Part shown: one piece after another, positions 15,925-52,662 of the stretch
Numbering within the stretch: position 1 is the first letter of the stretch
Layout: every line of letters begins with the position of its first letter
Origin: an uncultured Candidatus Saccharibacteria bacterium
GTDB lineage: Bacteria > Patescibacteriota > Minisyncoccia > Minisyncoccales > Staskawiczbacteraceae
Assembly (NCBI GenBank): GCA_964366875.1
Contig: CAYIVF010000002.1
Coordinates: 1 to 53,234 of the forward strand
Direction of reading: 5' to 3'
DNA length: 53,234 nt
The notes under the pieces: model-generated
What the model was told of the DNA's origin: nothing
Databases searched by the model: none
What the model saw: the letters and a program-made list of their open reading frames with translations, nothing else
Translations under genes and position numbers: made by a program

Positions 15925-16962
15925 TTAATTTGTTTTTGTAATTTCTTCAGATAATATTTTAGCGAAATATCCGGCGCTAAAAGGGTATGCATCGCTACTT
16001 TTAAGAAAATTATTTATAGCGTCTATGTAGTTTAGATAATCTTTATCGGATATATTCTTAATGTATTTATAGAGCTCATCATAAGTTTTAAATTTTTTTT
16101 TGTTAATAAATGTGTTTTGGGGAATATGGTCGGTTATATTCTGCGCTCCCCAATAAACCGGAATGCATCCTCCAAAGAAGCAATCAAATATTTTTTCTGT
16201 GATATAACCTTTAAAATCCCTGACATTTTCATAGCAAATAGAAAATTTATATTTTTCGTAAGTTTTTTTCTTTGATTTAACTTCCCCCTTATAAGAAGGG
16301 TAATCGGGCCTTAAAAGTTTGGTTAAAAATTTCAATCTATTTAATCTGGCTAAATTTATCCCCAAAAATTTGCCCTGAAAATTATGTTTATCCCAGCCTT
16401 TTCCATATAGGTCAAAATCTTCAGGATGGTTATTTTCAAACCAGCGGATTGCTTTTATTCTTTCGGTATATAATTCTAAAGGATGTGAAGCGGACTTATT
16501 GCTGGCTATCAGGGTGCATAATTTTTTCTTTTTACCTAAATCAAAATTTAAATTAGACGGTATTTTATGAGAATAGTTTATTTTAAAATATTTTTTATTG
16601 TCAATAAGTTCATCTGACCAAGTAAATATTTTTTTAAAATATTTGTGGTTTTCTAAATTTAAATTGTCTGGTTTTATAATGGGCGATTCAAAAGTTGTTA
16701 AATATATGTTTCGGAAATTATTTTTAATAAGTTTTTGAAAATATTTATTTTTAAAACCGGGGAAGTCTATAAATACCACGGCGTCAAATTTTTTAAAATC
16801 ATCTTTCATATCAATGGTATTTATTTTATGTCCCAGTTTTTTTAAGTATTGCCCTAAAAAAACAAAGGGATACATCAAATCATCACCGATAGGCGATGAC
16901 GGGTCAGTGAACATTTTGTTTTTGTTAAATTGTTTGGTATGGTTATAAAAACCTATATACAT
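15925..16962 (-). CDS. GT10-family alpha-1,3-fucosyltransferase (FutA-like)
   Basis: YKFSICYENVRDFKGYITEKIFDCFFGGCIPVYWG matches the GT10 signature (Helicobacter FutA has YKFNLCFEN..GYVTEKI.DAYFSHTIPIYWG). The start is set to Met23 (16962) to avoid a 52-nt overlap; the 17028 start is also possible. Confidence 0.8.
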   Translation of the reverse strand: MYIGFYNHTKQFNKNKMFTDPSSPIGDDLMYPFVFLGQYLKKLGHKINTIDMKDDFKKFDAVVFIDFPGFKNKYFQKLIKNNFRNIYLTTFESPIIKPDNLNLENHKYFKKIFTWSDELIDNKKYFKINYSHKIPSNLNFDLGKKKKLCTLIASNKSASHPLELYTERIKAIRWFENNHPEDFDLYGKGWDKHNFQGKFLGINLARLNRLKFLTKLLRPDYPSYKGEVKSKKKTYEKYKFSICYENVRDFKGYITEKIFDCFFGGCIPVYWGAQNITDHIPQNTFINKKKFKTYDELYKYIKNISDKDYLNYIDAINNFLKSSDAYPFSAGYFAKILSEEITKTN

Positions 16963-16976
16963 TTTAAGATAGATTA

Positions 16977-17891
16977 TTAGTGACGGCCGATATAGATTAA
17001 TTTTTTTTTGGTTTTTATCCTTTTCCAAATCCTATCAATCAATTCAGGACGATATTTTCTTGTAGCAAAAAGCAGCCATAAAATTATTTTTCTTAGCGGG
17101 CTTTTTATTTTTGATTGCGTTGTTTTTTTATTCCAGTAGTTTGAAACGCGATAAGCACTTTGAATAGGCCACTTCTCCCTAGAGCTATTTATTAAAGTTT
17201 TTCCCTTAGTGGCAAAAAACATAACTTCTACTCCTTTTGACGACAATATTAATTGTTCTTTTAACGCCGCCTCTTTACATTGATAAATTTTTGCCCCCTT
17301 TTCATAATTTAAAAAAGAACCTTCCAATATAAAACAGCTGAAATTTTTAAAACCATTAAGGGTGAAATAATCAAAAAAAAGAGTTGGACTAATTTGATAA
17401 AAACCGTGATTGATGGCGTTTGATGATGGGCAGTCAAGAATTACCGTTCCTTCGGGTTTTAACATCAGCTTTATATTTTCAAGGGCTTGAGGGATATTAA
17501 AGATATGTTCTAAACTTCCTATATCCAATATAACATCAAATTTGTTATGATATTGCTTCTTAACAGGAATATTCAGGTCCATTAATATGTCGGGGTTTTC
17601 ATAATCCGAAATATCGGCGACAAAAACTCTTTTAGCTCCAAATAAGGACAGAACTGTTTGACAATTAGTGTAATTCTGATAATTCGTTTCTCCCCAAGCA
17701 GGAATTTTATTCTTGGTATCAAAGCCAAGGGGCAGATTTTTGAGGGGCACTTTTTCCTTTTTGAATAACTTTTTAACTTCATTTAAGGTGCCATAAACAG
17801 CTTGCTGACTCAGAACTAATACATCGCCTTTTATAGGATATTTTTTTTGTTCTCTGGCCAATAAATACAAATTTCTTTTTAGCAAAGCCAT
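16977..17891 (-). CDS. class I SAM-dependent methyltransferase
   Basis: The start is set to MALLKRNLYLL (17891), because the 93-codon extension in the ORF track overlaps the divergent GT4 gene. FDVILDIGSLEHIFN and LKPEGTVIL motifs are present. Confidence 0.65.
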   Translation of the reverse strand: MALLKRNLYLLAREQKKYPIKGDVLVLSQQAVYGTLNEVKKLFKKEKVPLKNLPLGFDTKNKIPAWGETNYQNYTNCQTVLSLFGAKRVFVADISDYENPDILMDLNIPVKKQYHNKFDVILDIGSLEHIFNIPQALENIKLMLKPEGTVILDCPSSNAINHGFYQISPTLFFDYFTLNGFKNFSCFILEGSFLNYEKGAKIYQCKEAALKEQLILSSKGVEVMFFATKGKTLINSSREKWPIQSAYRVSNYWNKKTTQSKIKSPLRKIILWLLFATRKYRPELIDRIWKRIKTKKKLIYIGRH

Positions 17892-17982
17892 TTGTTGATT
17901 TTTTCTTAATATAATTATAGGATAATAATATAATAAATTTGTTTTAATTACAAGGCCTAAAAGAGCTTTGTTTTGATTAAAA
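17892..17982. promoter_or_regulatory. AT-rich divergent intergenic (promoter) region
   Basis: This 91-bp gap separates the minus-strand methyltransferase/GT10 pair from the plus-strand GT4 gene. I could not pick unambiguous hexamers. Confidence 0.4.
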
Positions 17983-19140
17983 ATGATTGATAAAAAAGAG
18001 AGGGTCACTATAGCTTTTTTTCTTCCTTCGCTTGAACCTGGAGGAACCGAAAGAAATGTAGTCAATCTTATTAATAATATTGATAGAAAAAAGTATAGAT
18101 TATCTCTTGTTTTGGGCGAAGCGGGAGGAGATTTTACAAGAGAGGTAAACAAAGGTATTCCTATTGTCAATTTAGATGTTTCTTATACATTGGGATTATT
18201 TTTTAAATTAATAAAATATTTTAAAAAAGAAGAACCCGATATTTTTGTTTCTGCTTTTCCCCGCATCAATATTGTTGCTATAATAGCGAGAATTCTTTCA
18301 GGAAAAAAAACAAAAATTGTTATCACCGAACATACTATTTTTTCTTTTCTGCCGATTATTGCCAAAACTTTTTGGCGCAGGTTTTTCGCGCGAGTTTTTC
18401 TGCCTGGCATTAGCAAGTTTGTTTATCCTAAAGCCGATGCGATAATATGCGTTTCTAATGGCATAGCCGACGACCTTTTAAAAATTATCCGTTGTTCAGA
18501 AAAAGTTAGGGTAATTTATAATCCCGTTACAAGCGCTAAAATTTATAAATTAGCAAAAGAACCGCTTAGCCATTCATGGTTTTCTAATTCAAAAATTCCG
18601 GTTATTATTGCAGTTGGACGTTTGGTAAAATGCAAGGATTACCCGAATATTTTTAGGGCTTTTAGCTTAATCCTTCAAAAAGAGCCTGCTCGTCTTGTAA
18701 TTTTAGGAAGAGGGCCGGAAAAAGAAAAATTGATACAACTGGCCGATAAACTTGATTTGTCCAAAAACATCGCTTTTTTAGGTTTTCAAAAAAATCCCTA
18801 CAAGTATATGAAAAAAGCATCGGTTTTTGTTTTATCTTCTTTACAAGAAGGTTTTGGCAATGTAATAATTGAAGCAATGGCTTGCGGAACGCCAGTGGTT
18901 TCAACAAATTGCCCGGCTGGACCAGATGAAATCATTGAAAATGGCAAAAACGGCATTTTAGTTTCCGTTGGGGATTATAAAGAGTTAGCCAAGGCAATTC
19001 AAAAAGTATTAAACAGTCCTTTTTTGAGAAAAAAATTTTCTGATGAGGGCAAAAACAGGGCCCAAGATTTTTCAATAATAAACAGCGTTAAACAATACGA
19101 GGAAGTTTTTTTAAAAATAATGTCCTCGTCGTTTAAATAA
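17983..19140 (+). CDS. glycosyltransferase, GT4 family
   Basis: FFLPSLEPGGTERNVVNL is at the N-terminus. VLSSLQEGFGNVIIEAMACGTPVVSTNCPAGPDEII is the GT4 motif. Confidence 0.85.
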   Translation: MIDKKERVTIAFFLPSLEPGGTERNVVNLINNIDRKKYRLSLVLGEAGGDFTREVNKGIPIVNLDVSYTLGLFFKLIKYFKKEEPDIFVSAFPRINIVAIIARILSGKKTKIVITEHTIFSFLPIIAKTFWRRFFARVFLPGISKFVYPKADAIICVSNGIADDLLKIIRCSEKVRVIYNPVTSAKIYKLAKEPLSHSWFSNSKIPVIIAVGRLVKCKDYPNIFRAFSLILQKEPARLVILGRGPEKEKLIQLADKLDLSKNIAFLGFQKNPYKYMKKASVFVLSSLQEGFGNVIIEAMACGTPVVSTNCPAGPDEIIENGKNGILVSVGDYKELAKAIQKVLNSPFLRKKFSDEGKNRAQDFSIINSVKQYEEVFLKIMSSSFK

Positions 19141-35287: not shown

Positions 35288-35289
35288 TT

Positions 35290-35323
35290 AAAATGTAAAT
35301 ATGGATTTTCTTATTTACATTTT
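35290..35323 (+). terminator. secA terminator hairpin
   Basis: aaaatgtaaata (35290-35301) pairs perfectly with tatttacatttt (35312-35323), giving a 12-bp stem and 10-nt loop. Confidence 0.6.
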
Positions 35324-35347
35324 AGGCGTTAAGTGTAAATAAAAAAA

Positions 35348-35375
35348 TTGACAGAAGATTTAAAGTTGATAATAT
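35348..35375 (+). promoter_or_regulatory. near-consensus sigma70-type promoter
   Basis: TTGACA-16 nt-TAATAT, 21 nt upstream of the 35396 ATG. Confidence 0.55.
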
Positions 35376-35395
35376 GAAGTATAAGCAATAAATTT

Positions 35396-35707
35396 ATGGC
35401 AGAAGAAACACTCGCAAAAAAAGATATTCAAGAACTTTTGGCTGGGCAGACAACAGTCATTTTAGAAGCGGTTGATGAAAAATTGTCCGAAGTAAAAATA
35501 GAAATGGTGAATATGGAGGAACGAATAGATAAAAAAATAGAAGTTTTGGATTTGAAATTTTCCGAAAAATTTGATAAGCTCACCACAACACTTGATAATT
35601 TTCTAAAAAGAATGATCGATATTGAAGATGAATTTACAATGATGCGCAACGATATCAATAGGATCAAAAAAACCATAAAAGAAAAGCTTGGAGTGGAATT
35701 GTCTTAG
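35396..35707 (+). CDS. hypothetical coiled-coil protein
   Basis: The 103-aa product is heptad-rich and charged. No family was recognised. Confidence 0.5.
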   Translation: MAEETLAKKDIQELLAGQTTVILEAVDEKLSEVKIEMVNMEERIDKKIEVLDLKFSEKFDKLTTTLDNFLKRMIDIEDEFTMMRNDINRIKKTIKEKLGVELS

Positions 35708-35816
35708 TTGGGTCAAAAATAATTTTGTAGCATAACTAACATTTGAGTAGTACCTGCGCCTGCCGAAAGGGAGTGTGCAGGTTTTTACTTTTATGCTACA
35801 ATTTATTAAATAACCG

Positions 35817-36002
35817 ATGAAAAATTTTAGTAAGACTAAAAAAGAAACTTATTATAAATGCGTTCATTGCGGAGATGAGATTTTTTGGAACACAAATAAA
35901 AAATTAACAGAATGTAGGTGCAGGAAAATTTATGTTGATGGCTGCGAGTTTTATGTTCGCATAGGCGGAGACAAGGAAGATTATGAAATAATTCAAAAAT
36001 AG
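35817..36002 (+). CDS. hypothetical small zinc-ribbon protein
   Basis: The 61-aa product has CVHCGDE...CRCRK, i.e. four Cys in a CxxC...CxC arrangement. Confidence 0.45.
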   Translation: MKNFSKTKKETYYKCVHCGDEIFWNTNKKLTECRCRKIYVDGCEFYVRIGGDKEDYEIIQK

Positions 36003-36088
36003 ATTTGTGGCAAATTCGCGCTAAATCAGTGCGGGTTTTTTCGTATACAATCAGATATAATTGGATATAGTTGGAGTCGTGCAAAAAA

Positions 36089-36117
36089 TTGACAAATCTT
36101 AAAATTTCATTTAATTT
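36089..36117 (+). promoter_or_regulatory. candidate sigma70-type promoter
   Basis: TTGACA-17 nt-TAATTT. A strong RBS (aaaggagatgtATG) follows at 36165-36178. Confidence 0.45.
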
Positions 36118-36175
36118 AAAATGAGGAACGTGGAATTGTGTTCAATCTGTAATTTGAAAATAAGAAAGGAGATGT

Positions 36176-37057
36176 ATGGCCAATCAAACTTTTCTCGAAA
36201 AAGTTGGAGCACGGAGTGTGCTTCTTGGTGACGGTGCAATGGGAACTGAGCTACAAAGACGTGGTTTTGTAGTGAGTGGATGCATGGAGTCAGCTAACGT
36301 TATAAATCCTGAGTTGGTGCAGGGGATTTATTGCGATTACTACAATGCCGGCTCGCAAATTGTTGAAACCAACAGTTTTGGTGCTAATCGTATTCGCCTA
36401 CAGAGATATGGACTGTCTCAAAAAATCGTCGAACTCAATAGGTTAGCCGTAGAACTTGCTAAGGCAGTTCGCCCGAAAGGATGTTTTATCGGCGGTTCGA
36501 TTGGGCCGACAGGTAGCATTCTTGAACCGTTTGGCGATTTAAAGTTACGGATAGCTTACGATGCATTTGCCGAACAAGCTGAAGCGCTTGCAGGGGGCGG
36601 AGCGGATGTGATTTACGTCGAAACTATGTCTGCGCTCGATGAAGTCGAAGTTGTCCTAAGAGCAGTAAAGGAAAGAACCGGTTTGCCAACAATAGTCACG
36701 ATGGTTTTTAAGGCTGGTAGAACCGGGCTTCGTACTTCTTTCGGTGTGGATGTGGTTACGGCAGTGCAAAAACTCTCTGAGTTTGGCGCTGATGTTATTG
36801 GAGCAAACTGCGGAGACCCAGAGGATATAATTGTCGCTATTCGGGAAATGCGCCCACTTACGGCAAAACCTATAATTGCTCAACCAAATGCTGGAATTCC
36901 AGAATTGGTGGATGGAACACCCGTTTATAGGCAAACGCCCGAAGCATTGCAATTTTGTATCGAGCAATTGCTAAAGACGGGTGTTAATATTATAGGCGGT
37001 TGTTGTGGGGTTGGACCAGCTCATATAAGGGCTATGCGGCAGTTGATGCTGTCATGA
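36176..37057 (+). CDS. stand-alone homocysteine S-methyltransferase domain protein (MetH N-terminal / MmuM-like)
   Basis: LLGDGAMGTELQRRG, ETNSFGAN, GSIGPTG, NCG and GGCCGVGPAHI (the Zn-binding Cys cluster) are typical of the Pfam S-methyl_trans domain. The first 60 nt contain 28 G+C. Confidence 0.8.
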   Translation: MANQTFLEKVGARSVLLGDGAMGTELQRRGFVVSGCMESANVINPELVQGIYCDYYNAGSQIVETNSFGANRIRLQRYGLSQKIVELNRLAVELAKAVRPKGCFIGGSIGPTGSILEPFGDLKLRIAYDAFAEQAEALAGGGADVIYVETMSALDEVEVVLRAVKERTGLPTIVTMVFKAGRTGLRTSFGVDVVTAVQKLSEFGADVIGANCGDPEDIIVAIREMRPLTAKPIIAQPNAGIPELVDGTPVYRQTPEALQFCIEQLLKTGVNIIGGCCGVGPAHIRAMRQLMLS

Positions 37058-37090
37058 TCGCGAAGCTTTGGCGTGCAAAAGCGCAGCAAT

Positions 37091-37119
37091 GACCTTTGGG
37101 TAAAACTGAAGGTCTTTTT
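37091..37119 (+). terminator. intrinsic terminator
   Basis: gacctt-tgggtaaaactg-aaggtc followed by ttttt. Confidence 0.6.
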
Positions 37120-37216
37120 ATTTGAGTTAAAATTATGAGTTTACAAAAGTTGACAGAGCGATTTTGGATTAAAAAACGTCTGAAAAATAGCATTAAAAGT
37201 TATTCACTCATAGCTC

Positions 37217-37244
37217 TGGACAAGGGGTTATGAGCTGGTAATAT
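37217..37244 (+). promoter_or_regulatory. candidate promoter of the GACAAGGGG class
   Basis: TGGACAAGGGGT, a 16-nt spacer with TGn, then TAATAT (37239-37244). It shares GACAAGGGG with the rnpB promoter and with the minus-strand promoter at 52113-52142. Confidence 0.4.
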
Positions 37245-37364
37245 TACTTTAGGAACATTAAAATTTTAAGGATTTACTCGCCCCGTTAGAAATTTAAATT
37301 ATAGATTTTTAACGGGACGAGCAGTCGAGATTCGTTATGTGTGAGGTATTACTCAGTTCTGACT

Positions 37365-37451
37365 TCCTGCGGGTAAGGAAATAAATATAAAAAATGCGGA
37401 ATACTAAATACAGAGGAGCATCAAAAGCTAACGAGAGAAAAGGAAATATAA
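37365..37451 (+). pseudogene. orphan copy B of the secA C-terminal zinc-finger tail
   Basis: It translates in one frame as SCG*GNKYKKCGILNTEEHQKLTREKEI*, compared with the live secA PCGSGKKYKKCGMLGTEEHKRNMAQKR*. The Ser codon is replaced by TAA and there is no upstream ORF. Confidence 0.75.
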
Positions 37452-37480
37452 AAAAAGCCCAAACTATGTTGGGTTTGGGT
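37450..37480 (-). terminator. intrinsic terminator of the Dabb gene (possibly bidirectional)
   Basis: The minus-strand RNA reads acccaaac-ccaacata-gtttgggc followed by ttttttt. Confidence 0.65.
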
Positions 37481-37488
37481 TAATGGTG

Positions 37489-37812
37489 TTAGCTGTTGCG
37501 AACGGGTGATGGGTGATGAATATCACCCACTTGCCAGTCAGCGACCTTGCAAAGGATGTCAGTAAGCTCTTTGTGTTTTGGGTGATTTCTAAAATTCTGC
37601 ATGGCTTCATCGTCGCTAAAGACGGCGATTTCAACCAGGTGCACGTTCTTCCTGAGGTCGAGATTGTGGCCGACCGTCCAAAAAAGAATTCCCGCTTCTT
37701 TCCCGCCACAGTCTTTGGCTAGCGATTGATAGCGTTCGTAGATTTCTTGTTTGATTTCCTCCGATGCTCCTGGCTTGAACCCGATTAGTACAACATGCCA
37801 GAGGTTTCCCAT
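37489..37812 (-). CDS. Dabb (stress-responsive alpha/beta-barrel) domain protein
   Basis: The 107-aa product has HVVLIGFKPGASEEIKQEIYERYQSL...HLVEIAVFSDDEAMQNFRNHPKH, which is typical of Dabb. The 60-nt sample 37501-37560 contains 31 G+C. Confidence 0.8.
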   Translation of the reverse strand: MGNLWHVVLIGFKPGASEEIKQEIYERYQSLAKDCGGKEAGILFWTVGHNLDLRKNVHLVEIAVFSDDEAMQNFRNHPKHKELTDILCKVADWQVGDIHHPSPVRNS

Positions 37813-37870
37813 TTTTTAGTCCTTTCCTGCTGCGGGTTGTGGGGTACGGATAGTTCAAGGTTCTATTTTG

Positions 37871-37899
37871 ATATTAGTACGCAGAGCTCCTAATGTCAA
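37871..37899 (-). promoter_or_regulatory. consensus sigma70-type promoter for the Dabb gene
   Basis: The minus strand reads TTGACA-17 nt-TAATAT (plus strand tgtcaa at 37894-99 and atatta at 37871-76). The RBS aggaaagga lies upstream of the ATG. Confidence 0.6.
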
Positions 37900-37917
37900 T
37901 TATAGTGAAATTTTTAT

Positions 37918-37992
37918 AAGTGCAGTAAAAAATATAAAAAATGCGGAATGTTAAATACCGAGGAACATCAAAAATTAATGAGAGAGAAGTAA
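37918..37992 (+). pseudogene. orphan copy C of the secA C-terminal tail
   Basis: It translates as KCSKKYKKCGMLNTEEHQKLMREK*, preceded by an in-frame TGA at 37906-08. It shares 52/60 nt with copy B over KYKKCG..EK (hand alignment). Confidence 0.75.
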
Positions 37993-38001
37993 ACCATAGG
38001 T

Positions 38002-45217: not shown

Positions 45218-46258
45218 ATGGAAAAAGTTAACTACAAACAAATTTACCAAAAACTTACTAAAGGCCTTGGTCAAAAAACTAAGGATATTTTTGATCGCAG
45301 ATTTGGCGTCGGGGCACCCTCTGGGTCGGGCGAGCCCGAAACCCTTGAAGCTATTGGCCAGACCCTAGGCATTACTCGTGAAAGAGTGCGCCAAATAGAG
45401 GAAGTTGGTTTTAACTTTGTAAGAAAACAGAGCAAAGAGCTGTTAGACAATGTTTTTTCTGAATTTAACCTTTATTTTAAAAACAAAGGCGGGGTCAAAA
45501 AAGAAGACATTATTTTAGAGGAATTGGGAGGCAAAAATCAAAAACCTTATGTTTTGTTTTTACTTACTTTGGGAGACCAGTTTTTTAGAGTTTGCGAAAA
45601 AAAGGACTTTTACTATTTTTGGTCAACTATTCCTGATGCGCAGAATAAAGTAAAGGAAACCTTAAATTCTTTAGTGTCTGATATGCAGAAAATAGGAAAG
45701 CCAGTATCTAAAAAAGAGTTTTATGCAGCTCTTTCTCCAAAATTGGGATTTTCAGAAGAGGTCTTGGCTTCTTATCTTGAAGTTTCAAAAAAAATACAAA
45801 AAAACAAGGAAGGAAAATTAGGTTTAATTGAGTGGCCGGAAATAAAGCCCAGGGGAGTAAAGGATAAAGCCTTTTTAGTGTTTAAAAAGCATCAAAAGCC
45901 CCTTCATTTTACAAAAGTGGCAGAACTAATAGATAAGTTAGAGTACAACTTGCCAAACAAAAAAACCTATCCTCAAACAGTTCATAATGAATTAATAAAA
46001 GATTCAAGGTTTGTGCTGGTGGGCCGCGGAACTTATGCTTTAGCTGAATGGGGGTATGTACCTGGCACCATAAAAGACATAATTACAAAAGTTTTAAAAG
46101 AAAAGAAAGAGCCTACATGCAGGGACGATATTGTAAAAGAGGTGCTTTTGCAGAGATTGGTTGCTAAAAATACCGTATTGATGAATTTAAACAACAAAAA
46201 GCATTTTGCCAAAGATTCAAACGACAGGTATTTTTTAAGAAAAACCCAAACAGCGTAA
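45218..46258 (+). CDS. DNA-binding protein: sigma-70 region-4-like HTH plus a C-terminal HARE-HTH-like winged helix
   Basis: TLEAIGQTLGITRERVRQIEEVGFNFVRK is the region-4 signature. The C-terminal LHFTKVAELI...VHNELIKDSRFVLVGRGTYALAEWGY is HARE-HTH-like, as in the RNAP delta subunit. Confidence 0.6.
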   Translation: MEKVNYKQIYQKLTKGLGQKTKDIFDRRFGVGAPSGSGEPETLEAIGQTLGITRERVRQIEEVGFNFVRKQSKELLDNVFSEFNLYFKNKGGVKKEDIILEELGGKNQKPYVLFLLTLGDQFFRVCEKKDFYYFWSTIPDAQNKVKETLNSLVSDMQKIGKPVSKKEFYAALSPKLGFSEEVLASYLEVSKKIQKNKEGKLGLIEWPEIKPRGVKDKAFLVFKKHQKPLHFTKVAELIDKLEYNLPNKKTYPQTVHNELIKDSRFVLVGRGTYALAEWGYVPGTIKDIITKVLKEKKEPTCRDDIVKEVLLQRLVAKNTVLMNLNNKKHFAKDSNDRYFLRKTQTA

Positions 46259-46299: not shown

Positions 46300-46384
46300 A
46301 CCCTTCACCTTTTCGTGGTTTGAGATACGTAAAGGGGGTAATTCTGTTAATCTGCCCTATTTTTATACCCAAAAGGTGAAGGGT
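46300..46384. repeat. 14-bp perfect inverted repeat enclosing 57 nt
   Basis: acccttcacctttt (46300-13) pairs with aaaaggtgaagggt (46371-84). The element lies between a terminator and the next promoter, whose -35 it touches. Confidence 0.85.
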
Positions 46385-46412
46385 TGATTATGATTTTTGG
46401 CAGAGGTATAAT
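46384..46412 (+). promoter_or_regulatory. sigma70-type promoter of the 46431-50811 operon
   Basis: TTGATT-17 nt-TATAAT. Confidence 0.55.
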
Positions 46413-46430: not shown

Positions 46431-46655
46431 ATGGATATTTTTAATATATTGCTTATAATCCTGCTGATACTGACGGCGGTTTATTATATTGTGTTTTTTT
46501 CCTTTATTTTTTATTGGCACTTAAAAAAAACCTCCTTTGTGGTGGTGCCGCTCATTTTTACTTTTGATTTTTTCCTTATAGGGTTTTTAATTATTTCAAT
46601 ACTATCTATTGTTATTAAATATTTTCCATATTTAATTAAATTAACAGGCATATGA
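46431..46655 (+). CDS. small two-TM membrane protein
   Basis: The 74-aa product has two long hydrophobic segments. It overlaps the next gene as ATGA. Confidence 0.55.
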   Translation: MDIFNILLIILLILTAVYYIVFFSFIFYWHLKKTSFVVVPLIFTFDFFLIGFLIISILSIVIKYFPYLIKLTGI

Positions 46656-48052
46656 AAGTAAAAGATTTTCTTTTTTGGACAGAGTGGGTTAAGAAAGTGA
46701 TTTGGGACCCTTTTTGGTGGGTGATTTTGTTTTTGATTATTTTATGGGTGCCTTTTTTAAGAGTCTGGTGGTGGATTTTTCTGCCCTTGATGCTTCAAAG
46801 ACAGATGAGAACGCTTTATTTATGGTGGATTGACTGGGATTATGATTATGTTACTAAACACAAATGGGTGTTATTGGAGGTGATTCCGCCAAAAGAGGTT
46901 TTAGCTCCCTATAAAGCCATGGAGGATGTGTTTGCGGCAATATGGCCTTTAATAGATACGGCAAACTTTAGGGAAATATGGTGCGACGGAGAATTAGCCA
47001 ATGGGCCTTACTGGTGCTCTTGGGAAATGGCCAGCATTGAGGGTAAAATCCATTTTTATTTAAGATTTTTGCAGCAACACCGCCTTAGTGTTGAAACAGC
47101 GCTTTATGCTCATTATCCCGATATAGAAATCAGCGAGGTTTCAGATTATGTAAAGCTTGTTCCCCCTACTGTGCCCAATGACGAATGGGACATGTACGGA
47201 GAGGACTGGGATTTTTATAGAGAGGATGCTTTTCCAATGAAGACGTATGAAAAGTTTTTTGAGCCGCAGGGCGAAAGAATTACAGCTGAAGAGAAAAGAA
47301 TTGACCCAATGCTTTCTTTGCTTGAAAGCATGTCAAGAATAGGTCCGGGGGAGCATTATTGGGTGCAATTTATCACGGTTCCCATAACAGAGCACGATGA
47401 GCCGGATTGGCAAAAAGAGGGAGAAAAAATAATTAATAAATTATCCAAGCGCCAGGAAAAGAAAGAGCCCACTCTTTTAGAGGATTTAGGTTATATGACA
47501 AGGCAAGTTATTTTGGGTCCTGAAAAAGAGGGGTCGGGCGAAGGAGCTAAATATAGCTGGTTGGAACAGACAAAGTCTGAGACAGGCGAAAGGGAAATGG
47601 TTATTACCCCGGGCGAAAGAGAGATTATTGCTGAAATTGAAAACAAAATGAAAAAACCGGTTTTCAGGACGACTATAAGAGGGGTTTATGTTGCTAAGCG
47701 CGAGAACTTTAAAGTGCCGCATAGAGTGATTATGAGGTCATATATGGGGCATTTTGCTACTGTTAATTTAAATCATTTCAGATTTCAGCCCAAGACAAGG
47801 CCAAGAGTCCATTTTTTTTGGAGAGAGAGAAGAGTATTTTTAAGGGCAAGAAAAATGTTTAGAAATACTGTTTTAAGATTCCCGCCATTGTTTCCAAATA
47901 GGATGAGCGATGATTTAAACCCAATTTTAAGCACAGAAGAAATGGCAACTTTATTTCACTTCCCGTTAAGAGTTACAGGCATGGTAGTCCCGACTATGGC
48001 AAAAGTTGAATCTAAGAAAGGCGGTCCTCCGCCCAACTTGCCCGTTGAGTAA
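46652..48052 (+). CDS. bitopic membrane protein with a large soluble domain (unknown family), partner of the downstream ATPase
   Basis: The 466-aa product has two Trp-rich N-terminal TM helices (FWWVILFLIILWVPFL and VWWWIFLPLML). Its conserved-looking C-terminal motif LSTEEMATLFHFP is followed by a basic/Pro tail. Confidence 0.6.
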   Translation: MKVKDFLFWTEWVKKVIWDPFWWVILFLIILWVPFLRVWWWIFLPLMLQRQMRTLYLWWIDWDYDYVTKHKWVLLEVIPPKEVLAPYKAMEDVFAAIWPLIDTANFREIWCDGELANGPYWCSWEMASIEGKIHFYLRFLQQHRLSVETALYAHYPDIEISEVSDYVKLVPPTVPNDEWDMYGEDWDFYREDAFPMKTYEKFFEPQGERITAEEKRIDPMLSLLESMSRIGPGEHYWVQFITVPITEHDEPDWQKEGEKIINKLSKRQEKKEPTLLEDLGYMTRQVILGPEKEGSGEGAKYSWLEQTKSETGEREMVITPGEREIIAEIENKMKKPVFRTTIRGVYVAKRENFKVPHRVIMRSYMGHFATVNLNHFRFQPKTRPRVHFFWRERRVFLRARKMFRNTVLRFPPLFPNRMSDDLNPILSTEEMATLFHFPLRVTGMVVPTMAKVESKKGGPPPNLPVE

Positions 48053-48067
48053 AACAAAAAAATAAAA

Positions 48068-49774
48068 ATGAAGAGCGAAACTGTTTTTTTTGGACTAACT
48101 ACTTTTAGAAACCAGCGCAAGAAATTTGGCATTAAAACCGACGACAGGCGGAGGCATTTTTACTGTCTTGGAAAAACCGGCATGGGAAAATCCAATATGA
48201 TGGAAAGCATGGCCATACAGGATATTCAGGCGGGCCGCGGAGTGGCCTATGTGGATCCGCACGGAGAGGGAGCTACAAAACTTCTTGATTTTGTGCCGGC
48301 AAAAAGAATCAACGACGTTGTATATTTAAACCCAGCTGACTTAGACTATCCTGTTGCTTTTAACGTAATGGAAAGGGTTGATTTCAGATACAGGCACCTG
48401 GTAGCCGGCGGTCTTATGGGCGTTTTTAAAAAAGTGTGGCCAGATGTTTGGTCAGCTCGCATGGAATATATTTTGAACAATTCCATATTAGCTCTTTTAG
48501 AGTATCCCGACTCAACAATTCTCGGCATAAATAGAATGTTAGCTGACGTAGAATACAGAGAAAAAGTGGTTTCTAAAATTACAGACCCCATAGTGAAATC
48601 TTTTTGGGTTACAGAATACGCCAGATACACCCAGCGTTATGAGATTGAAGCTACGGCTGCCATACAAAACAAAGTAGGCCAGTTTATTTCCAACCCCTTG
48701 ATAAGAAACATTATCGGCCAGACAAAATCCACCATAAATATGCGAGACATTATGGACAAAGAAAAGATAATGATTATGGATTTAGCGAAAGGAAGAATTG
48801 GCGAAGACAACTCCAGGCTTTTGGGAGCGCTTTTAATTACAAAACTGCAATTAGCTGCCATGTCCAGAGTTGATATTCTTGAAGAGGACAGAAAAGACTT
48901 TTATTTGTATGTAGACGAGTTCCAAAACTTTGCTACGGAATCCTTTGCAAATATTTTGTCTGAAGCTAGAAAATACAGATTAAATATTACTTTGGGCCAC
49001 CAATATATTACTCAAATGGAAGAAGAAGTAAGAGACGCAGTTTTTGGCAACGTAGGAACTTTGGCTGTTTTCAGGATTGGAGCCGAAGACGCAGAATTTT
49101 TAGAAAGAGAATTTTCGCCTCAGTTTACCGCTGAAGATTTAGTTAATCTGCCAAAATACAATATTTATTTAAAATTAATGATTGACGGAGTTGCTGGTCA
49201 CCCCTTTTCAGCTGAAACCCTTCCTCCGCCAATACCCTTAGAAGAATCAAACAAAGAAAAAATTATCAAAGCGTCAAGAGAAAGATACGGCATTAAAAAA
49301 GAAATAGTTGAAGATAAAATTTCTCGCTGGTCGGGATTCGCAGAGGAACAAACAAATAAGAACAAACCAAGAGACCAGCAGCAAAACAATCCCCCAACAA
49401 ACCAAGCGAATCAAACACTGCTTTACGATGCAGTTTGTTCTAATTGCGGAAAACCCACAAAAGTTGTTTTTCCGCCAGAAAAGGGAAGGCCTGTTTATTG
49501 TAAATCCTGCTTAAAGAAGATGAAATCTCCCAACCAAGATTCTTTTGGGCAGGAGGTTTTAAAAGTAGAAAATATCCCATTTCATAATCCTAAAAGAAGG
49601 CCGGAAGACAAGCCCAAATCCGCGCATGGGCGGAAAGAGATTAATTTATCTGAGCTTAAAAAAGCATTAGAAGAATCGCTGGAAGGGGAGAATGCAAGCG
49701 ATGAGGAATCGGAGCAGGAGGAAGGGGGCGACAAAAAAGGAGTTATAAAACCAGGCCAGACGGTGCATCTATGA
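48068..49774 (+). CDS. FtsK/HerA-superfamily P-loop ATPase of the VirD4/TraD (type IV coupling protein)-like type, lacking a TM anchor, with a C-terminal zinc ribbon and disordered tail
   Basis: CLGKTGMGKSN is Walker A and DFYLYVDEFQNF is Walker B. RKYRLNITLGHQY is present. The C-terminal CSNCGKPTKVVFPPEKGRPVYCKSCLKK is flanked by Q/N/P- and E/K-rich segments. Confidence 0.7.
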   Translation: MKSETVFFGLTTFRNQRKKFGIKTDDRRRHFYCLGKTGMGKSNMMESMAIQDIQAGRGVAYVDPHGEGATKLLDFVPAKRINDVVYLNPADLDYPVAFNVMERVDFRYRHLVAGGLMGVFKKVWPDVWSARMEYILNNSILALLEYPDSTILGINRMLADVEYREKVVSKITDPIVKSFWVTEYARYTQRYEIEATAAIQNKVGQFISNPLIRNIIGQTKSTINMRDIMDKEKIMIMDLAKGRIGEDNSRLLGALLITKLQLAAMSRVDILEEDRKDFYLYVDEFQNFATESFANILSEARKYRLNITLGHQYITQMEEEVRDAVFGNVGTLAVFRIGAEDAEFLEREFSPQFTAEDLVNLPKYNIYLKLMIDGVAGHPFSAETLPPPIPLEESNKEKIIKASRERYGIKKEIVEDKISRWSGFAEEQTNKNKPRDQQQNNPPTNQANQTLLYDAVCSNCGKPTKVVFPPEKGRPVYCKSCLKKMKSPNQDSFGQEVLKVENIPFHNPKRRPEDKPKSAHGRKEINLSELKKALEESLEGENASDEESEQEEGGDKKGVIKPGQTVHL

Positions 49775-50811
49775 AAACCCTCAAAGATATTAATGTAATA
49801 AACAAAAAAGTTTTGGTAAGATGCGATTTTAACGTACCCGTAGATGAGCAAGGAAATATTTTAGATGATTTTAGGATTAGACAATCTCTTTTCACCATAA
49901 ACCGCTTGATAGAAAGCAAAGCCAAGATAATCTTAATGAGCCATTTAGATCCTAAAAGCACAGGAGTCGCAGACTCAAAGTTTAATCTAAATAAAGTAGC
50001 AGAGAAATTATCAGAATATTTAGGTTTTTCGGTAGCTAAGGCAGATAATTGCATTGGTCCTGAAATAGAAAGTTATGCTGATAATTTAGAGCCGGGGCAG
50101 ATTCTTTTGCTAGAAAATCTAAGGTTTCACAAAGAAGAGGAAGCAGGGGACTTAGAATTTGCAAAGAAGCTCGCGTATCTTGCCGAAGTTTATGTTAACG
50201 ACGCTTTTTCGGTTTGTCACAGAGAACATGCTTCAATTACCGCAGTTCCCATACTTCTGCCTCATTGCGCAGGGCTTTTGTTAGAAAAAGAAATCACAAA
50301 CTTAGATAAACTCTTGCAAGACCCGCAAAAACCGATGGTAGCCGTAATAGGAGGGAAAAAAGTGGAGACAAAGTCAAAATTTATTGATAAAATTTCAGAG
50401 TCAGCCGACTGCGTTATAATCAGCGGTCTTATCAAAAAAGAAGTTCAAGAAAAGAAAATTCAATTTAAAGAGCCGGAAAAAATATTGGGCCCTTTAGACT
50501 TTTTAGATGGTTTGGATATTGACCAAAAAACAACAGATATATTTTGCGAAAAGATATTGCAGGCAAAGACAGTTGTGTGGAATGGTCCCTTTGGAAAGTT
50601 TGAGGATGAAAAATACGCCCGGGGAACCTTGGCAATTGCTAATGCGATTATTGAAAGCGGAGCTTATTCTGTTGTTGGCGGGGGAGAGACAGTTGAATTT
50701 ATAACTAAACAGGGTATAATTGAAAAGTTCAGTCATGTTTCAACTGGCGGCGGAGCAATGCTGCAATATTTATCCGGCGAAAAATTGCCAGGTTTAGAAG
50801 CGCTGAACTAA
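49771..50811 (+). CDS. pgk: phosphoglycerate kinase (compact form, 346 aa)
   Basis: VLVRCDFNVPVD, ILMSHL, LLENLRFHKEEE, VWNGPFGKFE and STGGGAMLQYLSG are present. It overlaps the ATPase gene as ATGA. Confidence 0.9.
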   Translation: MKTLKDINVINKKVLVRCDFNVPVDEQGNILDDFRIRQSLFTINRLIESKAKIILMSHLDPKSTGVADSKFNLNKVAEKLSEYLGFSVAKADNCIGPEIESYADNLEPGQILLLENLRFHKEEEAGDLEFAKKLAYLAEVYVNDAFSVCHREHASITAVPILLPHCAGLLLEKEITNLDKLLQDPQKPMVAVIGGKKVETKSKFIDKISESADCVIISGLIKKEVQEKKIQFKEPEKILGPLDFLDGLDIDQKTTDIFCEKILQAKTVVWNGPFGKFEDEKYARGTLAIANAIIESGAYSVVGGGETVEFITKQGIIEKFSHVSTGGGAMLQYLSGEKLPGLEALN

Positions 50812-52179: not shown

Positions 52180-52662
52180 ATGGAACCGGAAAATCTTTTA
52201 AAAGGGAGAATGGCTGAAAGTTTAATAGAAGAATTACTTAAAAAATGTGGCAATAAAGTCTATCGTTTTGGCTACGAAGCCGTTTTACAGAATTTGACTC
52301 AATTAGAAAGAGTATTTGATAGAGAAAGCGAAATGGGTCACAGAATTAGTTCTATTCCTGACTTTATTGTAATCAATAAACAAGGAAAACCATTTTTAGT
52401 TGAGGTTAAATTTAGAACAGATTTAGTCGTTTTCAATAGTAATGAAATCAGACGCCTTGAGTTTATTGAGAAATTCTGGAAAGCAAAAATAATTTTACTA
52501 ACAACTCAACAACCTTATTTTAGAGTTTCTAATAGTCCTTATTTAAACGAAAAACAAGAATGGAATTGGATTCCCATAAAAGAAGATTCTAATTTTGAAA
52601 TTTCTGACGATATTTTAGGAGAGTTTAATAAATTATTAGAAAAATATTATAAAAAAATATGA
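52180..52662 (+). CDS. PD-(D/E)xK nuclease-fold protein (YraN/UPF0102-like)
   Basis: GRMAESLIEELLKKCG...IPDFIVINKQGKPFLVEVKFR gives the E...D...(E/V)xK arrangement of restriction-endonuclease-like proteins. Confidence 0.45.
   Translation: MEPENLLKGRMAESLIEELLKKCGNKVYRFGYEAVLQNLTQLERVFDRESEMGHRISSIPDFIVINKQGKPFLVEVKFRTDLVVFNSNEIRRLEFIEKFWKAKIILLTTQQPYFRVSNSPYLNEKQEWNWIPIKEDSNFEISDDILGEFNKLLEKYYKKI

Follow-up and report, generated by a model that had tools for sequence, protein, structure and literature searches.

A DUF8128 membrane protein and an anchorless VirD4/TrwB-type ATPase as a candidate two-subunit coupling motor of Patescibacteria

Two adjacent genes on contig CAYIVF010000002.1 of an uncultured member of the Staskawiczbacteraceae encode a 466-residue membrane protein of the DUF8128 family and a 568-residue ATPase that resembles the VirD4/TrwB-type coupling proteins of type IV secretion systems (T4SS) and carries no membrane anchor (Table 1). 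The whole stretch of DNA that was analyzed, 53,234 nucleotides (nt) in length, is referred to here as the window. It is proposed that the two proteins are a split motor akin to a type IV coupling protein (T4CP), which would act as the coupling or energizing ATPase of a relaxase-less chromosomal T4SS encoded elsewhere, and we regard the case for this proposal as about evenly balanced. The evidence comes from the affiliation of the ATPase, from fusion of the two proteins into one chain in phages and plasmids, and from the way in which the pair has been conserved among Patescibacteria.

By its sequence the ATPase is an anchorless T4CP of the VirD4/TrwB type. It scores above the Pfam gathering cut-offs (GA) for PF10412 (TrwB_AAD_bind, 26.0 bits, GA 20.5), PF12696 (TraG-D_C, 27.0 bits, GA 22) and PF01935 (DUF87/HerA), and it has no Pfam match to P-loop_TraG or AAA_10, nor any at E ≤0.1 to FtsK_SpoIIIE or FtsK_gamma. 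With a profile of 29 diverse orthologs, TrwB (3.4e-7) and DotL (4.8e-6) ranked best in a search of the PDB. When this profile was aligned by hhalign to individual proteins, TrwB of plasmid R388 matched over 269 columns (probability 96.5%, E 7e-10, ~22% identity), as against 25 columns confined to Walker A for the VirB4 protein of the same plasmid, TrwK (probability 3.7%, E 0.011), 98 columns for the VirB4 protein TrsE of pSK41 (89%, E 2.3e-6) and 303 columns for TraK of pSK41, a member of the CD1115 family (22%, E 1e-3). Among the 29 orthologs G35, K36, G38, G40 and K41 are invariant, as are D283, E284, Q286, Q312 and Y313. The Walker B region aligns with the LFIDE...GLQS segment of TrwB, and the ~240 residues between Walker A and Walker B align with the region of the TrwB all-alpha domain, at low column confidence. 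These profile matches, together with the invariant Walker A, Walker B and HQ motifs, point to a VirD4/TrwB-type motor of the FtsK-HerA superfamily, and the position of Walker A at residue 35, with no hydrophobic segment before it, shows that the enzyme lacks its own membrane anchor. The earlier note on this DNA, which was made from the letters alone and described a coupling-protein-like ATPase without an anchor, is borne out on both points.

The same note had seen a CxxC...CxxC zinc ribbon in a disordered tail rich in Q, N, P, E and K, and this too agrees with the family models. The ribbon, which lies within a low-complexity tail of that composition (residues 430-568), is recognized by PF23477 (zf_Tbcl_2; 2e-13, 50.2 bits, GA 27) and by TIGR04272 (2.3e-13, 49.6 bits, cut-off 36), and it is shared by 48 of the 69 orthologous ATPases that are complete. 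A CxxC-x17-CxxC domain has been shown experimentally to bind zinc in small proteins of Methanosarcina mazei (PMC12704099). Two further observations concern the ATPase. Its closest annotated relative outside the Patescibacteria, on a plasmid of Sulfitobacter mediterraneus (locus L091, 8968-10155; 39.5% identity, E 5e-89), is a 395-residue protein that is also anchorless and stands alone amid transposase and recombinase genes. The PADLOC model mad8, from the MADS defense system, matches residues 6-367 at 1.3e-14, better than any Pfam T4CP model, and since no other mad gene accompanies the match it suggests that mad8 is itself a T4CP-like ATPase.

The partner is assigned to the Pfam family DUF8128 (PF26449). 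There was no match to it in the local NCBIfam and PADLOC libraries or in the local Pfam copy, which does not hold PF26449; its homologs at 69-93% identity carry the precomputed PF26449 annotation, and a UniRef member is named 'DUF8128 domain-containing protein'. An exhaustive HMMER search recovered 1,295 DUF8128 clusters at 50% identity, 441 of them at E ≤1e-30, and nearly all of these relatives are stand-alone proteins of ~420-470 residues. A literature search found no paper on DUF8128 or PF26449. Two N-terminal transmembrane (TM) helices had been suggested for this protein; there is instead one 28-residue hydrophobic stretch (residues 20-48) that is broken by Arg37. A single hydrophobic run is present in 84 of 99 diverse family members, with K+R of 0.8 before it and 2.9 after it, and according to the positive-inside rule this excess points to a single N-out, C-in anchor followed by a cytoplasmic domain. 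The conservation of the C-terminal motif that had been picked out by eye extends across the 99 members, in which E429, E430, H436 and P438 vary little or not at all. In the extreme C-terminal peptide, which forms the linker into the ATPase in fused homologs, K456, P460, L463 and P464 are conserved in the family.

The large soluble domain, which the earlier note could not assign, is thus DUF8128, and its fold was predicted. An AlphaFold2 model made with 30 close homologs had a predicted local distance difference test score (pLDDT) of 50 and was discarded, while the model made with the 99 diverse sequences reached a pLDDT of 88.7 and a predicted template modeling score (pTM) of 0.84. When this model was compared with the PDB by Foldseek, the top 13 matches were all chains of TrwK/VirB4 from R388 (best E 2.6e-4, probability 1.0), with moderate TM-scores of 0.3-0.34, and no match to anything other than VirB4 fell below E 0.02. 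In BFVD the best Foldseek match was gp156 of Bacillus phage G (4e-17), and others were two further Bacillus phage proteins, the VirB4-like gp155 (2e-5) and a protein called 'Component of type IV transporter system' (2.6e-4), which is the name of the VirB4 N-terminal Pfam family. The cytoplasmic domain of ~390 residues is therefore predicted to have a fold like that of the VirB4 N-terminal domain. At the level of sequence the DUF8128 profile has no match to TrwB, to the small pSK41 T4CP partner, to the PDB or to any Pfam family.

That the two proteins act together is argued by their fusion elsewhere. The phage family phrog_5156 (824 positions) is matched by the 466-residue protein at positions 80-289 and by the ATPase at 407-819, that is, in the same order as the genes of the window. 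In the 825-residue gp156 of phage G the DUF8128 profile covers residues 30-320 (hhalign probability 98.6, E 1.3e-15; 77 bits by hmmsearch), and this alignment includes the LNxEE..H.P motif, which is located just before the ATPase domain of gp156. The profile also matches the N-terminal part of a 906-residue protein of phage SP8 (38 bits) and, weakly, gp91 of phage CP-51 (20 bits) and an 800-residue protein of the C. botulinum plasmid pCLK (13 bits); in the fused proteins the matches all fall within residues 22-346. The C-terminal halves of the fused phage and plasmid proteins are matched by the ATPase profile at E 1e-29 to 1e-59. No match was returned when the gp156 N-terminal domain was searched against a large protein database or when DUF8128 was searched by tblastn against phage and plasmid records. 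Fusion in the Bacillus phages G, SP8 and CP-51 and in C. botulinum plasmids suggests that the window holds the split version of one machine, and by this Rosetta-stone argument the 466-residue protein and the ATPase would act as one unit, in keeping with the original suggestion that the upstream membrane protein is the partner of the ATPase. The fused gene of phage G adjoins a TrbL/VirB6-like gene (1.8e-11) and a VirB4-like ATPase gene (P-loop_TraG 1.6e-15), and pCLK has a TrbC/VirB2 pilin gene that overlaps its fused gene at the start. As an observation on the phages themselves, the TrbL/VirB6-like, VirB4-like and fused DUF8128-T4CP-like genes of phage G stand side by side (locus L085, 3774-9338), and the SPO1-like phages CP-51 and SP8 (L088, L089) hold the gene for a ~900-residue fused protein amid small genes in a conserved block, so that Bacillus phages look, from their genes, as if they carry an uncharacterized T4SS-like module.

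The pair is also widespread and its position is conserved. A scan of species-representative genomes, one for each GTDB species, with the C-terminal motif EE[LM]A[TS][ILM][FYW]H[FL]P revealed a DUF8128 relative in at least 542 of them, and the same pattern scan of IMG/VR viral contigs found none. With few exceptions the taxa named for 80 loci are Patescibacteria of the Paceibacteria/ABY1 type, and they include Staskawicz-, Nealson-, Wildermuth-, Moran-, Magasanik-, Lipton-, Terry-, Portnoy-, Wolfe-, Niyogi-, Gribaldo- and Spechtbacteria. Some third-party-annotation (TPA) labels of metagenome-assembled genomes ('Saccharibacteria', 'Gammaproteobacteria', 'Pacearchaeota') look unreliable, because the loci in question share the Paceibacteria synteny. 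At 74 of 83 loci the ATPase gene follows the DUF8128 gene directly, mostly with a gap of −14 to +80 nt, and the order secF, a gene for a protein with sigma-70 region 4 and HARE-HTH domains, DUF8128, ATPase, pgk and DHH recurs across lineages. In the 25 loci that hold all six of these genes (among loci L003-L068), the median identity to the window proteins is 73% for the ATPase core, 48% for SecF, 47% for DHH, 42% for both PGK and the sigma-70 region 4/HARE-HTH protein, and 37% for DUF8128, the lowest of the six, and the ATPase core is the most conserved of the six in every one of the 25 loci. These comparisons show a pair that is core, chromosomal, vertically inherited and, as judged from protein identity, under very strong constraint; the core, non-mobile function supposed at the outset is supported by the number of genomes, the fixed synteny, the conservation and the IMG/VR result.

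There are loci that depart from this order. In Magasanikbacteria (L071, L076, L077) DUF8128 lies directly 3' of secF with no ATPase adjoining, and it is preceded by a 52-53-residue two-TM open reading frame (ORF) with a GWWWT motif (L071 5696-5857, L076 5727-5885, L077 5783-5944). In L005 pgk is directly 3' of DUF8128, and the surroundings of the DUF8128 and ATPase genes are rearranged in L092 (5683-7873) and L001 (11677-17395). Between DUF8128 and the ATPase, some Staskawiczbacteria have a PemK toxin gene together with a gene for a 567-residue protein without a Pfam match, and at one Staskawiczbacteria locus pgk is replaced 3' of the ATPase by four tandem genes for ~565-577-residue proteins without Pfam matches.

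The conservation and context of the pair bear directly on whether it is a remnant or cargo of a mobile element or of a defense system, such as the conjugative T4CP of an integrative and conjugative element or a HerA/MADS-type ATPase. The nearest non-Patescibacterial relatives are indeed on plasmids and phages, and the mad8 match and weak HerA matches could be read in this way. Synteny with secDF and pgk is, however, kept in dozens of lineages, the G+C content (GC) of the locus is in line with its surroundings, the 53 kb contain no integrase, relaxase, transposase or other mad gene, the viral contigs yield no relative, and purifying selection is very strong. PADLOC found no system match for the 74-residue protein encoded upstream, DUF8128 and two neighboring proteins, except a weak one to MzaA, and no other defense genes came up when the window was scanned with Pfam. 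Mobile-element and defense readings were rejected on grounds of synteny, gene context and conservation, and an origin of this kind is, in our judgment, very improbable and largely refuted.

In the proposed coupling motor, for which we infer the hexamer, the docking by way of the C-terminal peptide, the placement of the DUF8128 domain in the cytoplasm and the role in the cell, DUF8128 would be held in the membrane by its single N-terminal hydrophobic segment, and its cytoplasmic, VirB4-N-terminal-domain-like part would recruit the soluble ATPase to the membrane and organize it there. The conserved C-terminal peptide of DUF8128 (LNTEELATxxHFP...PPxNLP) would most likely dock on the ATPase, since it runs straight into the ATPase in the fused versions. 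The ATPase, presumably a hexameric ring as in its relatives, would use ATP to recruit and push its substrate, and the zinc ribbon on the flexible tail could capture a substrate or an adaptor.

Secretion systems with which such a motor could work have been described. VirB4-type T4SS occur in 2,417 of 3,035 Patescibacteria genomes, usually near dnaA, and relaxases are almost absent (Quinonero-Coronel et al., 2025; PMC12102498). In Table S1 of that study VirB4 is present in most Staskawiczbacteria, including the genome of one locus in our comparison (L004) that has the DUF8128 gene, the ATPase gene and the small gene upstream of them. The same authors reported 5,713 VirD4-type T4CP homologs in 2,918 genomes, 148 of them near virB4, considered exaptation of t4cp in Patescibacteria to be possible, and described TrsD as a separate protein that is remotely related to the VirB4 N-terminus (PMC12102498). 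T4CPs that lack a transmembrane domain (TMD) and rely on a small membrane partner are a recognized subfamily, as in TraJ/TraI of pIP501 (PMC7434980). The earlier note had favored a minimal translocase of two polypeptides with its anchor supplied in trans and had named a T4SS elsewhere in the genome as telling against this. The two polypeptides and the membrane partner stand, whereas the independence of the pair is in part contradicted, since relatives that include L004 possess a chromosomal, relaxase-less VirB4 T4SS (PMC12102498) for which the pair may be the coupling protein in trans.

Several findings weigh against the coupling-motor proposal. No T4SS or relaxase gene lies within the 53 kb, which leaves the ATPase without the linkage expected of a T4CP, and the NCBIfam equivalog models TraD, CD1115 and CedD give 27-37 bits against cut-offs of 250-647. 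T4CP homologs are found in 96% of Patescibacteria genomes and VirB4 in 80% (PMC12102498), so that some of these homologs may act without a T4SS, and the t4cp homolog of Saccharimonadia strain ML1, which is a homolog and not an established ortholog, is reported to be non-essential (PMC12102498). DUF8128 and the ATPase are non-adjacent in L005, L071 and L077, and from the Magasanikbacteria loci and L005 it follows that the pair can be uncoupled. The VirB4-like fold of DUF8128 is a result of Foldseek alone, at the TM-scores given above; hhalign of DUF8128 to TrwK, gp155 and TrsD gives probabilities ≤0.3, and none of the 99 members matches PF03135 (CagE_TrbE_VirB). Since all of the sequence-profile tests are negative, the likeness to VirB4 is a lead at the level of fold and not an established homology. 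Conjugative T4CPs are usually poorly conserved, and the extreme conservation of the ATPase suits a housekeeping nucleic-acid motor better.

One such motor would be an FtsK-like pump for chromosomal DNA that is independent of any T4SS and serves, for example, in segregation or clearance at division, with DUF8128 in place of the FtsK membrane domain and the zinc ribbon in place of the gamma domain. It would fit a conservation that is at the level of core information-processing proteins, a housekeeping operon in which the ATPase stop overlaps the pgk start, the membership of the ATPase in the FtsK-HerA superfamily, and the near-universal occurrence of T4CP homologs in Patescibacteria, above that of VirB4 (PMC12102498). 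Yet the ATPase has no FtsK_SpoIIIE match in Pfam and its best matches are T4CPs, the fused homologs adjoin VirB2-, VirB4- and VirB6-like genes and no division genes, and an ftsK gene is already annotated in Saccharimonadia at least (TM7x; bioRxiv 10.1101/2022.03.25.485537). A pump of this type is considered quite unlikely.

A motor for import has more in its favor and is only rather unlikely. Here the pair would bring DNA or RNA of the host into the cell, either alone or as the CedD-like part of a Ced-like T4SS, and the zinc ribbon would bind nucleic acid. The analogy to the archaeal Ced system, which had been drawn from the window sequence, has a published precedent in CedD, a VirD4-like ATPase that DNA import requires, whose gene lies away from the rest of the ced genes and some orthologs of which have no TM domain (PMC11823120). 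The T4SS of Patescibacteria are without relaxases, and these bacteria are generally unable to make nucleotides (PMC12102498); the zinc ribbon and charged tail are kept in 48 of the 69 orthologs, and a motor as strongly conserved as this one would suit a universal substrate, for example nucleic acid. Against this, the ribbon is missing in the other 21 orthologs and its class is known to bind zinc only (PMC12704099), the locus has no VirB6, CedA or ComEC channel protein, the window contains no CedA- or CedB-type partners, and the CedD model matches the Walker A region alone, with 32 bits against a cut-off of 600. We hold to be unlikely a more specific form of import, in which the pair would serve a Ced-like importer as its motor on the cytoplasmic side and, with the relaxase-less T4SS, bring host nucleic acid or another universal substrate into the epibiont. 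If true, this form would explain both the essentiality of the T4SS in nucleotide-auxotrophic Patescibacteria and a conservation of the motor above that of SecF and PGK, and the family would be an evolutionary intermediate in which a VirB4-type N-terminal domain is joined to a VirD4-type motor.

The gene immediately upstream of DUF8128 encodes a 74-residue protein, which had been counted as the first member of a three-gene module. The conserved unit is instead one of two genes, because the 74-residue gene is lineage-restricted, being found upstream of DUF8128 in ~13 of 80 related loci; at most of the loci without it, the upstream gene ends <60 nt before DUF8128. The protein has hydrophobic segments at residues 1-31 and 33-72 and no Pfam match, and its ten orthologs (24-62% identity) are each encoded directly 5' of the DUF8128 gene. 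From its sequence and distribution it is taken to be an optional, lineage-specific membrane accessory. Its identity as a VirB2, VirB3 or pilin protein found no support: hhalign to TrwM and to the VirB2 of pCLK gave a probability of 0.1, and none of the ten family members matches the TrbC/VirB2, T4SS_pilin or VirB3 families of Pfam. The number of membrane segments of DUF8128 differs among near relatives, and close homologs of 541-549 residues (P0059, P0061, P0080, P0081) and ~497 residues (P0020, P0032) have one or two additional N-terminal hydrophobic helices that are unrelated to the 74-residue protein. The 541-549-residue variants were accordingly rejected as fusions with that protein, the gene for which is still present upstream of them.

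These small proteins would be the substrate if the pair were a VirB4-like assembly ATPase that extracts or inserts two-TM proteins, for example the 74-residue product, for a surface filament. The predicted fold of DUF8128 resembles the VirB4 N-terminal domain, a TrbC/VirB2 pilin gene overlaps the fused homolog in pCLK, and the gene for the two-TM hairpin overlaps the DUF8128 start. Mature VirB2-type pilins are similar to this hairpin in size and topology. The motor is VirD4-like and not VirB4-like, however, and the small gene is missing at most loci and its product has no VirB2, VirB3 or T4SS_pilin similarity. An assembly role is considered improbable.

The genes of the locus are tightly packed. 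In the raw sequence the DUF8128 start overlaps the stop of the 74-residue ORF ('catATGAaag' at 46652), the TAA of DUF8128 is separated from the ATG of the ATPase by a 15-nt A-rich gap, and the pgk start overlaps the ATPase stop ('ctATGAaaa' at 49771). The three ORFs, the overlaps and every motif quoted in the earlier note were recovered in place. A promoter-like sequence upstream could be the start of a possible operon of the 74-residue gene, DUF8128, ATPase and pgk; the region contains 19 such consensus matches where 14 are expected by chance, which supports it weakly.

Table 1. Features of the DUF8128/ATPase locus, in window coordinates.
Feature	Residues	Coordinates	Strand	Remarks
Promoter-like TTGATT-17-TATAAT		46384..46412	+	19 nt 5' of first ORF; consensus match alone
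74-residue ORF		46431-46655	+	Putative two-TM hairpin membrane protein with short basic loop (WHLKK); accessory
466-residue ORF, DUF8128 (PF26449)		46652-48052	+	Putative membrane anchor and cytoplasmic adaptor subunit
Trp-rich hydrophobic membrane segment	20-48	46709..46795	+	Arg37 mid-way
C-terminal signature LSTEEMATLFHFP	426-438	47927..47965	+	Family consensus LNTEELATxxHFP
Extreme C-terminal peptide ESKKGGPPPNLP		48008..48043	+	Conserved
568-residue ATPase ORF		48068-49774	+	
ATPase core	1-440	48068..49387	+	Anchorless VirD4/TrwB-type NTPase, FtsK-HerA superfamily
Walker A GKTGMGKS	35-42	48170..48193	+	
Walker B YLYVDEFQNF through LGHQY	279-288 through 309-313	48902..49006	+	
CxxC-x17-CxxC zinc ribbon CSNCGKPTKVVFPPEKGRPVYCKSC	457-481	49436..49510	+	
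pgk		49771-50811		Directly 3' of ATPase; PGK Pfam E 2.7e-111

Beyond the locus the window consists of a sugar-nucleotide and glycosyltransferase cluster (~0.4-30 kb) together with housekeeping genes. A Pfam scan of ~58 ORFs of the 53 kb, which omitted three ORFs of ≥110 residues that are all within the sugar cluster, found no T4SS, relaxase, integrase, transposase, pilin or competence/comEC gene, no polytopic channel gene and no VirB4-like gene, in agreement with the initial view that no other conjugation gene is nearby. There is no tRNA gene in the 53 kb and no Rfam match in the window. The sugar cluster (~360-29800) is a long run of genes for sugar-nucleotide epimerases and dehydratases, an aminotransferase, methyltransferases and GT1, GT4 and GT10 glycosyltransferases, and two minus-strand genes within it (15925-18170), located in the stretch of lowest GC in the window (0.29), could have entered a surface-glycan locus by lateral acquisition. 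The highest GC (0.42) is at 35288-38001, where the sole ORF of ≥110 residues encodes a homocysteine S-methyltransferase (36176-37057) and there is neither a tRNA nor an Rfam match. A 160-residue ORF at 52180-52662 has a sub-threshold match (8e-5) to a TnsA-like endonuclease N-terminal domain, and its stop overlaps the start of an RNase H-like gene at 52659. The 346-residue protein encoded at 45218-46258 combines sigma-70 region 4 (1.2e-9) with HARE-HTH (4.7e-12) and a weak match to the RNA polymerase delta subunit, an unusual architecture, and could be a transcription factor peculiar to this group of bacteria. Its gene is a near-constant 5' neighbor of DUF8128 in most related loci; it was considered as a member of the module and dropped, because genes on the opposite strand intervene in L001 and L092 and it is absent from the Magasanikbacteria loci.

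The Patescibacteria are ultra-small, host-dependent bacteria that account for much of bacterial diversity, and no T4SS other than their chromosomal one has, to our knowledge, been reported as essential to the cell that carries it. The analysis makes one orphan VirD4 family concrete, in that it has a seemingly obligate partner, a fixed position, a frequent zinc-ribbon tail and an exceptionally conserved motor, and it offers a working function for the Pfam family DUF8128. It also provides a specific two-protein target for studies of the cargo of the Patescibacterial T4SS, or of a T4CP that has been domesticated for some other core task. The existence of orphan T4CP homologs in Patescibacteria is already published (PMC12102498). 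What appears not to have been described is the DUF8128 partner with its predicted VirB4-like fold, the relation between split and fused forms, the presence of a zinc ribbon in the tail, the constancy of the gene order and the exceptional degree of conservation.

Among known systems, VirB4 and TrsD are the ones that DUF8128 itself brings to mind. In VirB4 (TrwK), as in the proposed machine of the window, a membrane-proximal N-terminal domain goes together with a RecA-like motor, and TrsD provides a domain like the VirB4 N-terminal domain from a separate gene (PMC12102498), as DUF8128 would. DUF8128 differs in having no profile similarity to TrwK, gp155, TrsD or PF03135, and the motor that it accompanies is VirD4-like. 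The fused proteins of phage G (gp156), the SPO1-like phages (a 'VirD4-like' protein of 900 residues) and C. botulinum (800 residues) have the same two modules in the same order and share the LNxEE...H.P junction motif with the window pair. In contrast to the pair they are single chains without a zinc ribbon, they are found on mobile genomes beside VirB2-, VirB4- and VirB6-like genes, and gp156, which aligns from residue 30, is without the N-terminal anchor of the window DUF8128.

The archaeal CedD of Sulfolobus is likewise a VirD4-like ATPase encoded away from its partners, it belongs to a chromosomal, non-conjugative T4SS-like machine, and some of its orthologs have no TM domain, as is the case for the window ATPase (PMC11823120). 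Import has been shown for CedD, which differs in having no DUF8128 partner and no zinc ribbon and in matching the window ATPase at the P-loop region only. In sequence and profile comparisons the window ATPase comes closest to TrwB, VirD4 and DotL, and in TrwB the Walker A, Walker B and Q motifs are co-linear with it; its long insert between Walker A and Walker B aligns, at low column confidence, with the region of the TrwB all-alpha domain. The window ATPase departs from these three in the lack of an N-terminal TMD, in its location away from a relaxase or T4SS and in its zinc-ribbon C-terminal extension. In TraJ/TraI of pIP501 and TraK of pSK41 (CD1115), a VirD4-type ATPase without its own TMD is encoded, as in the window, just downstream of a membrane protein, and the 154-residue gene of pSK41 overlaps the T4CP start. 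The partner in the window is larger (466 residues), with a sizable folded cytoplasmic domain (DUF8128) and no similarity to the small pSK41 partner; the ATPase is distant from the CD1115 family (27 bits where the cut-off is 250, hhalign probability 22) and has a zinc ribbon, and the locus is chromosomal, core and relaxase-free. On this comparison of sequences, the window partner is a member of DUF8128 and not a demonstrable member of the VirB4 or TrsD families, and the ATPase is one that would work like a T4CP without a TMD, outside the TraJ/CD1115, TraD and CedD families.

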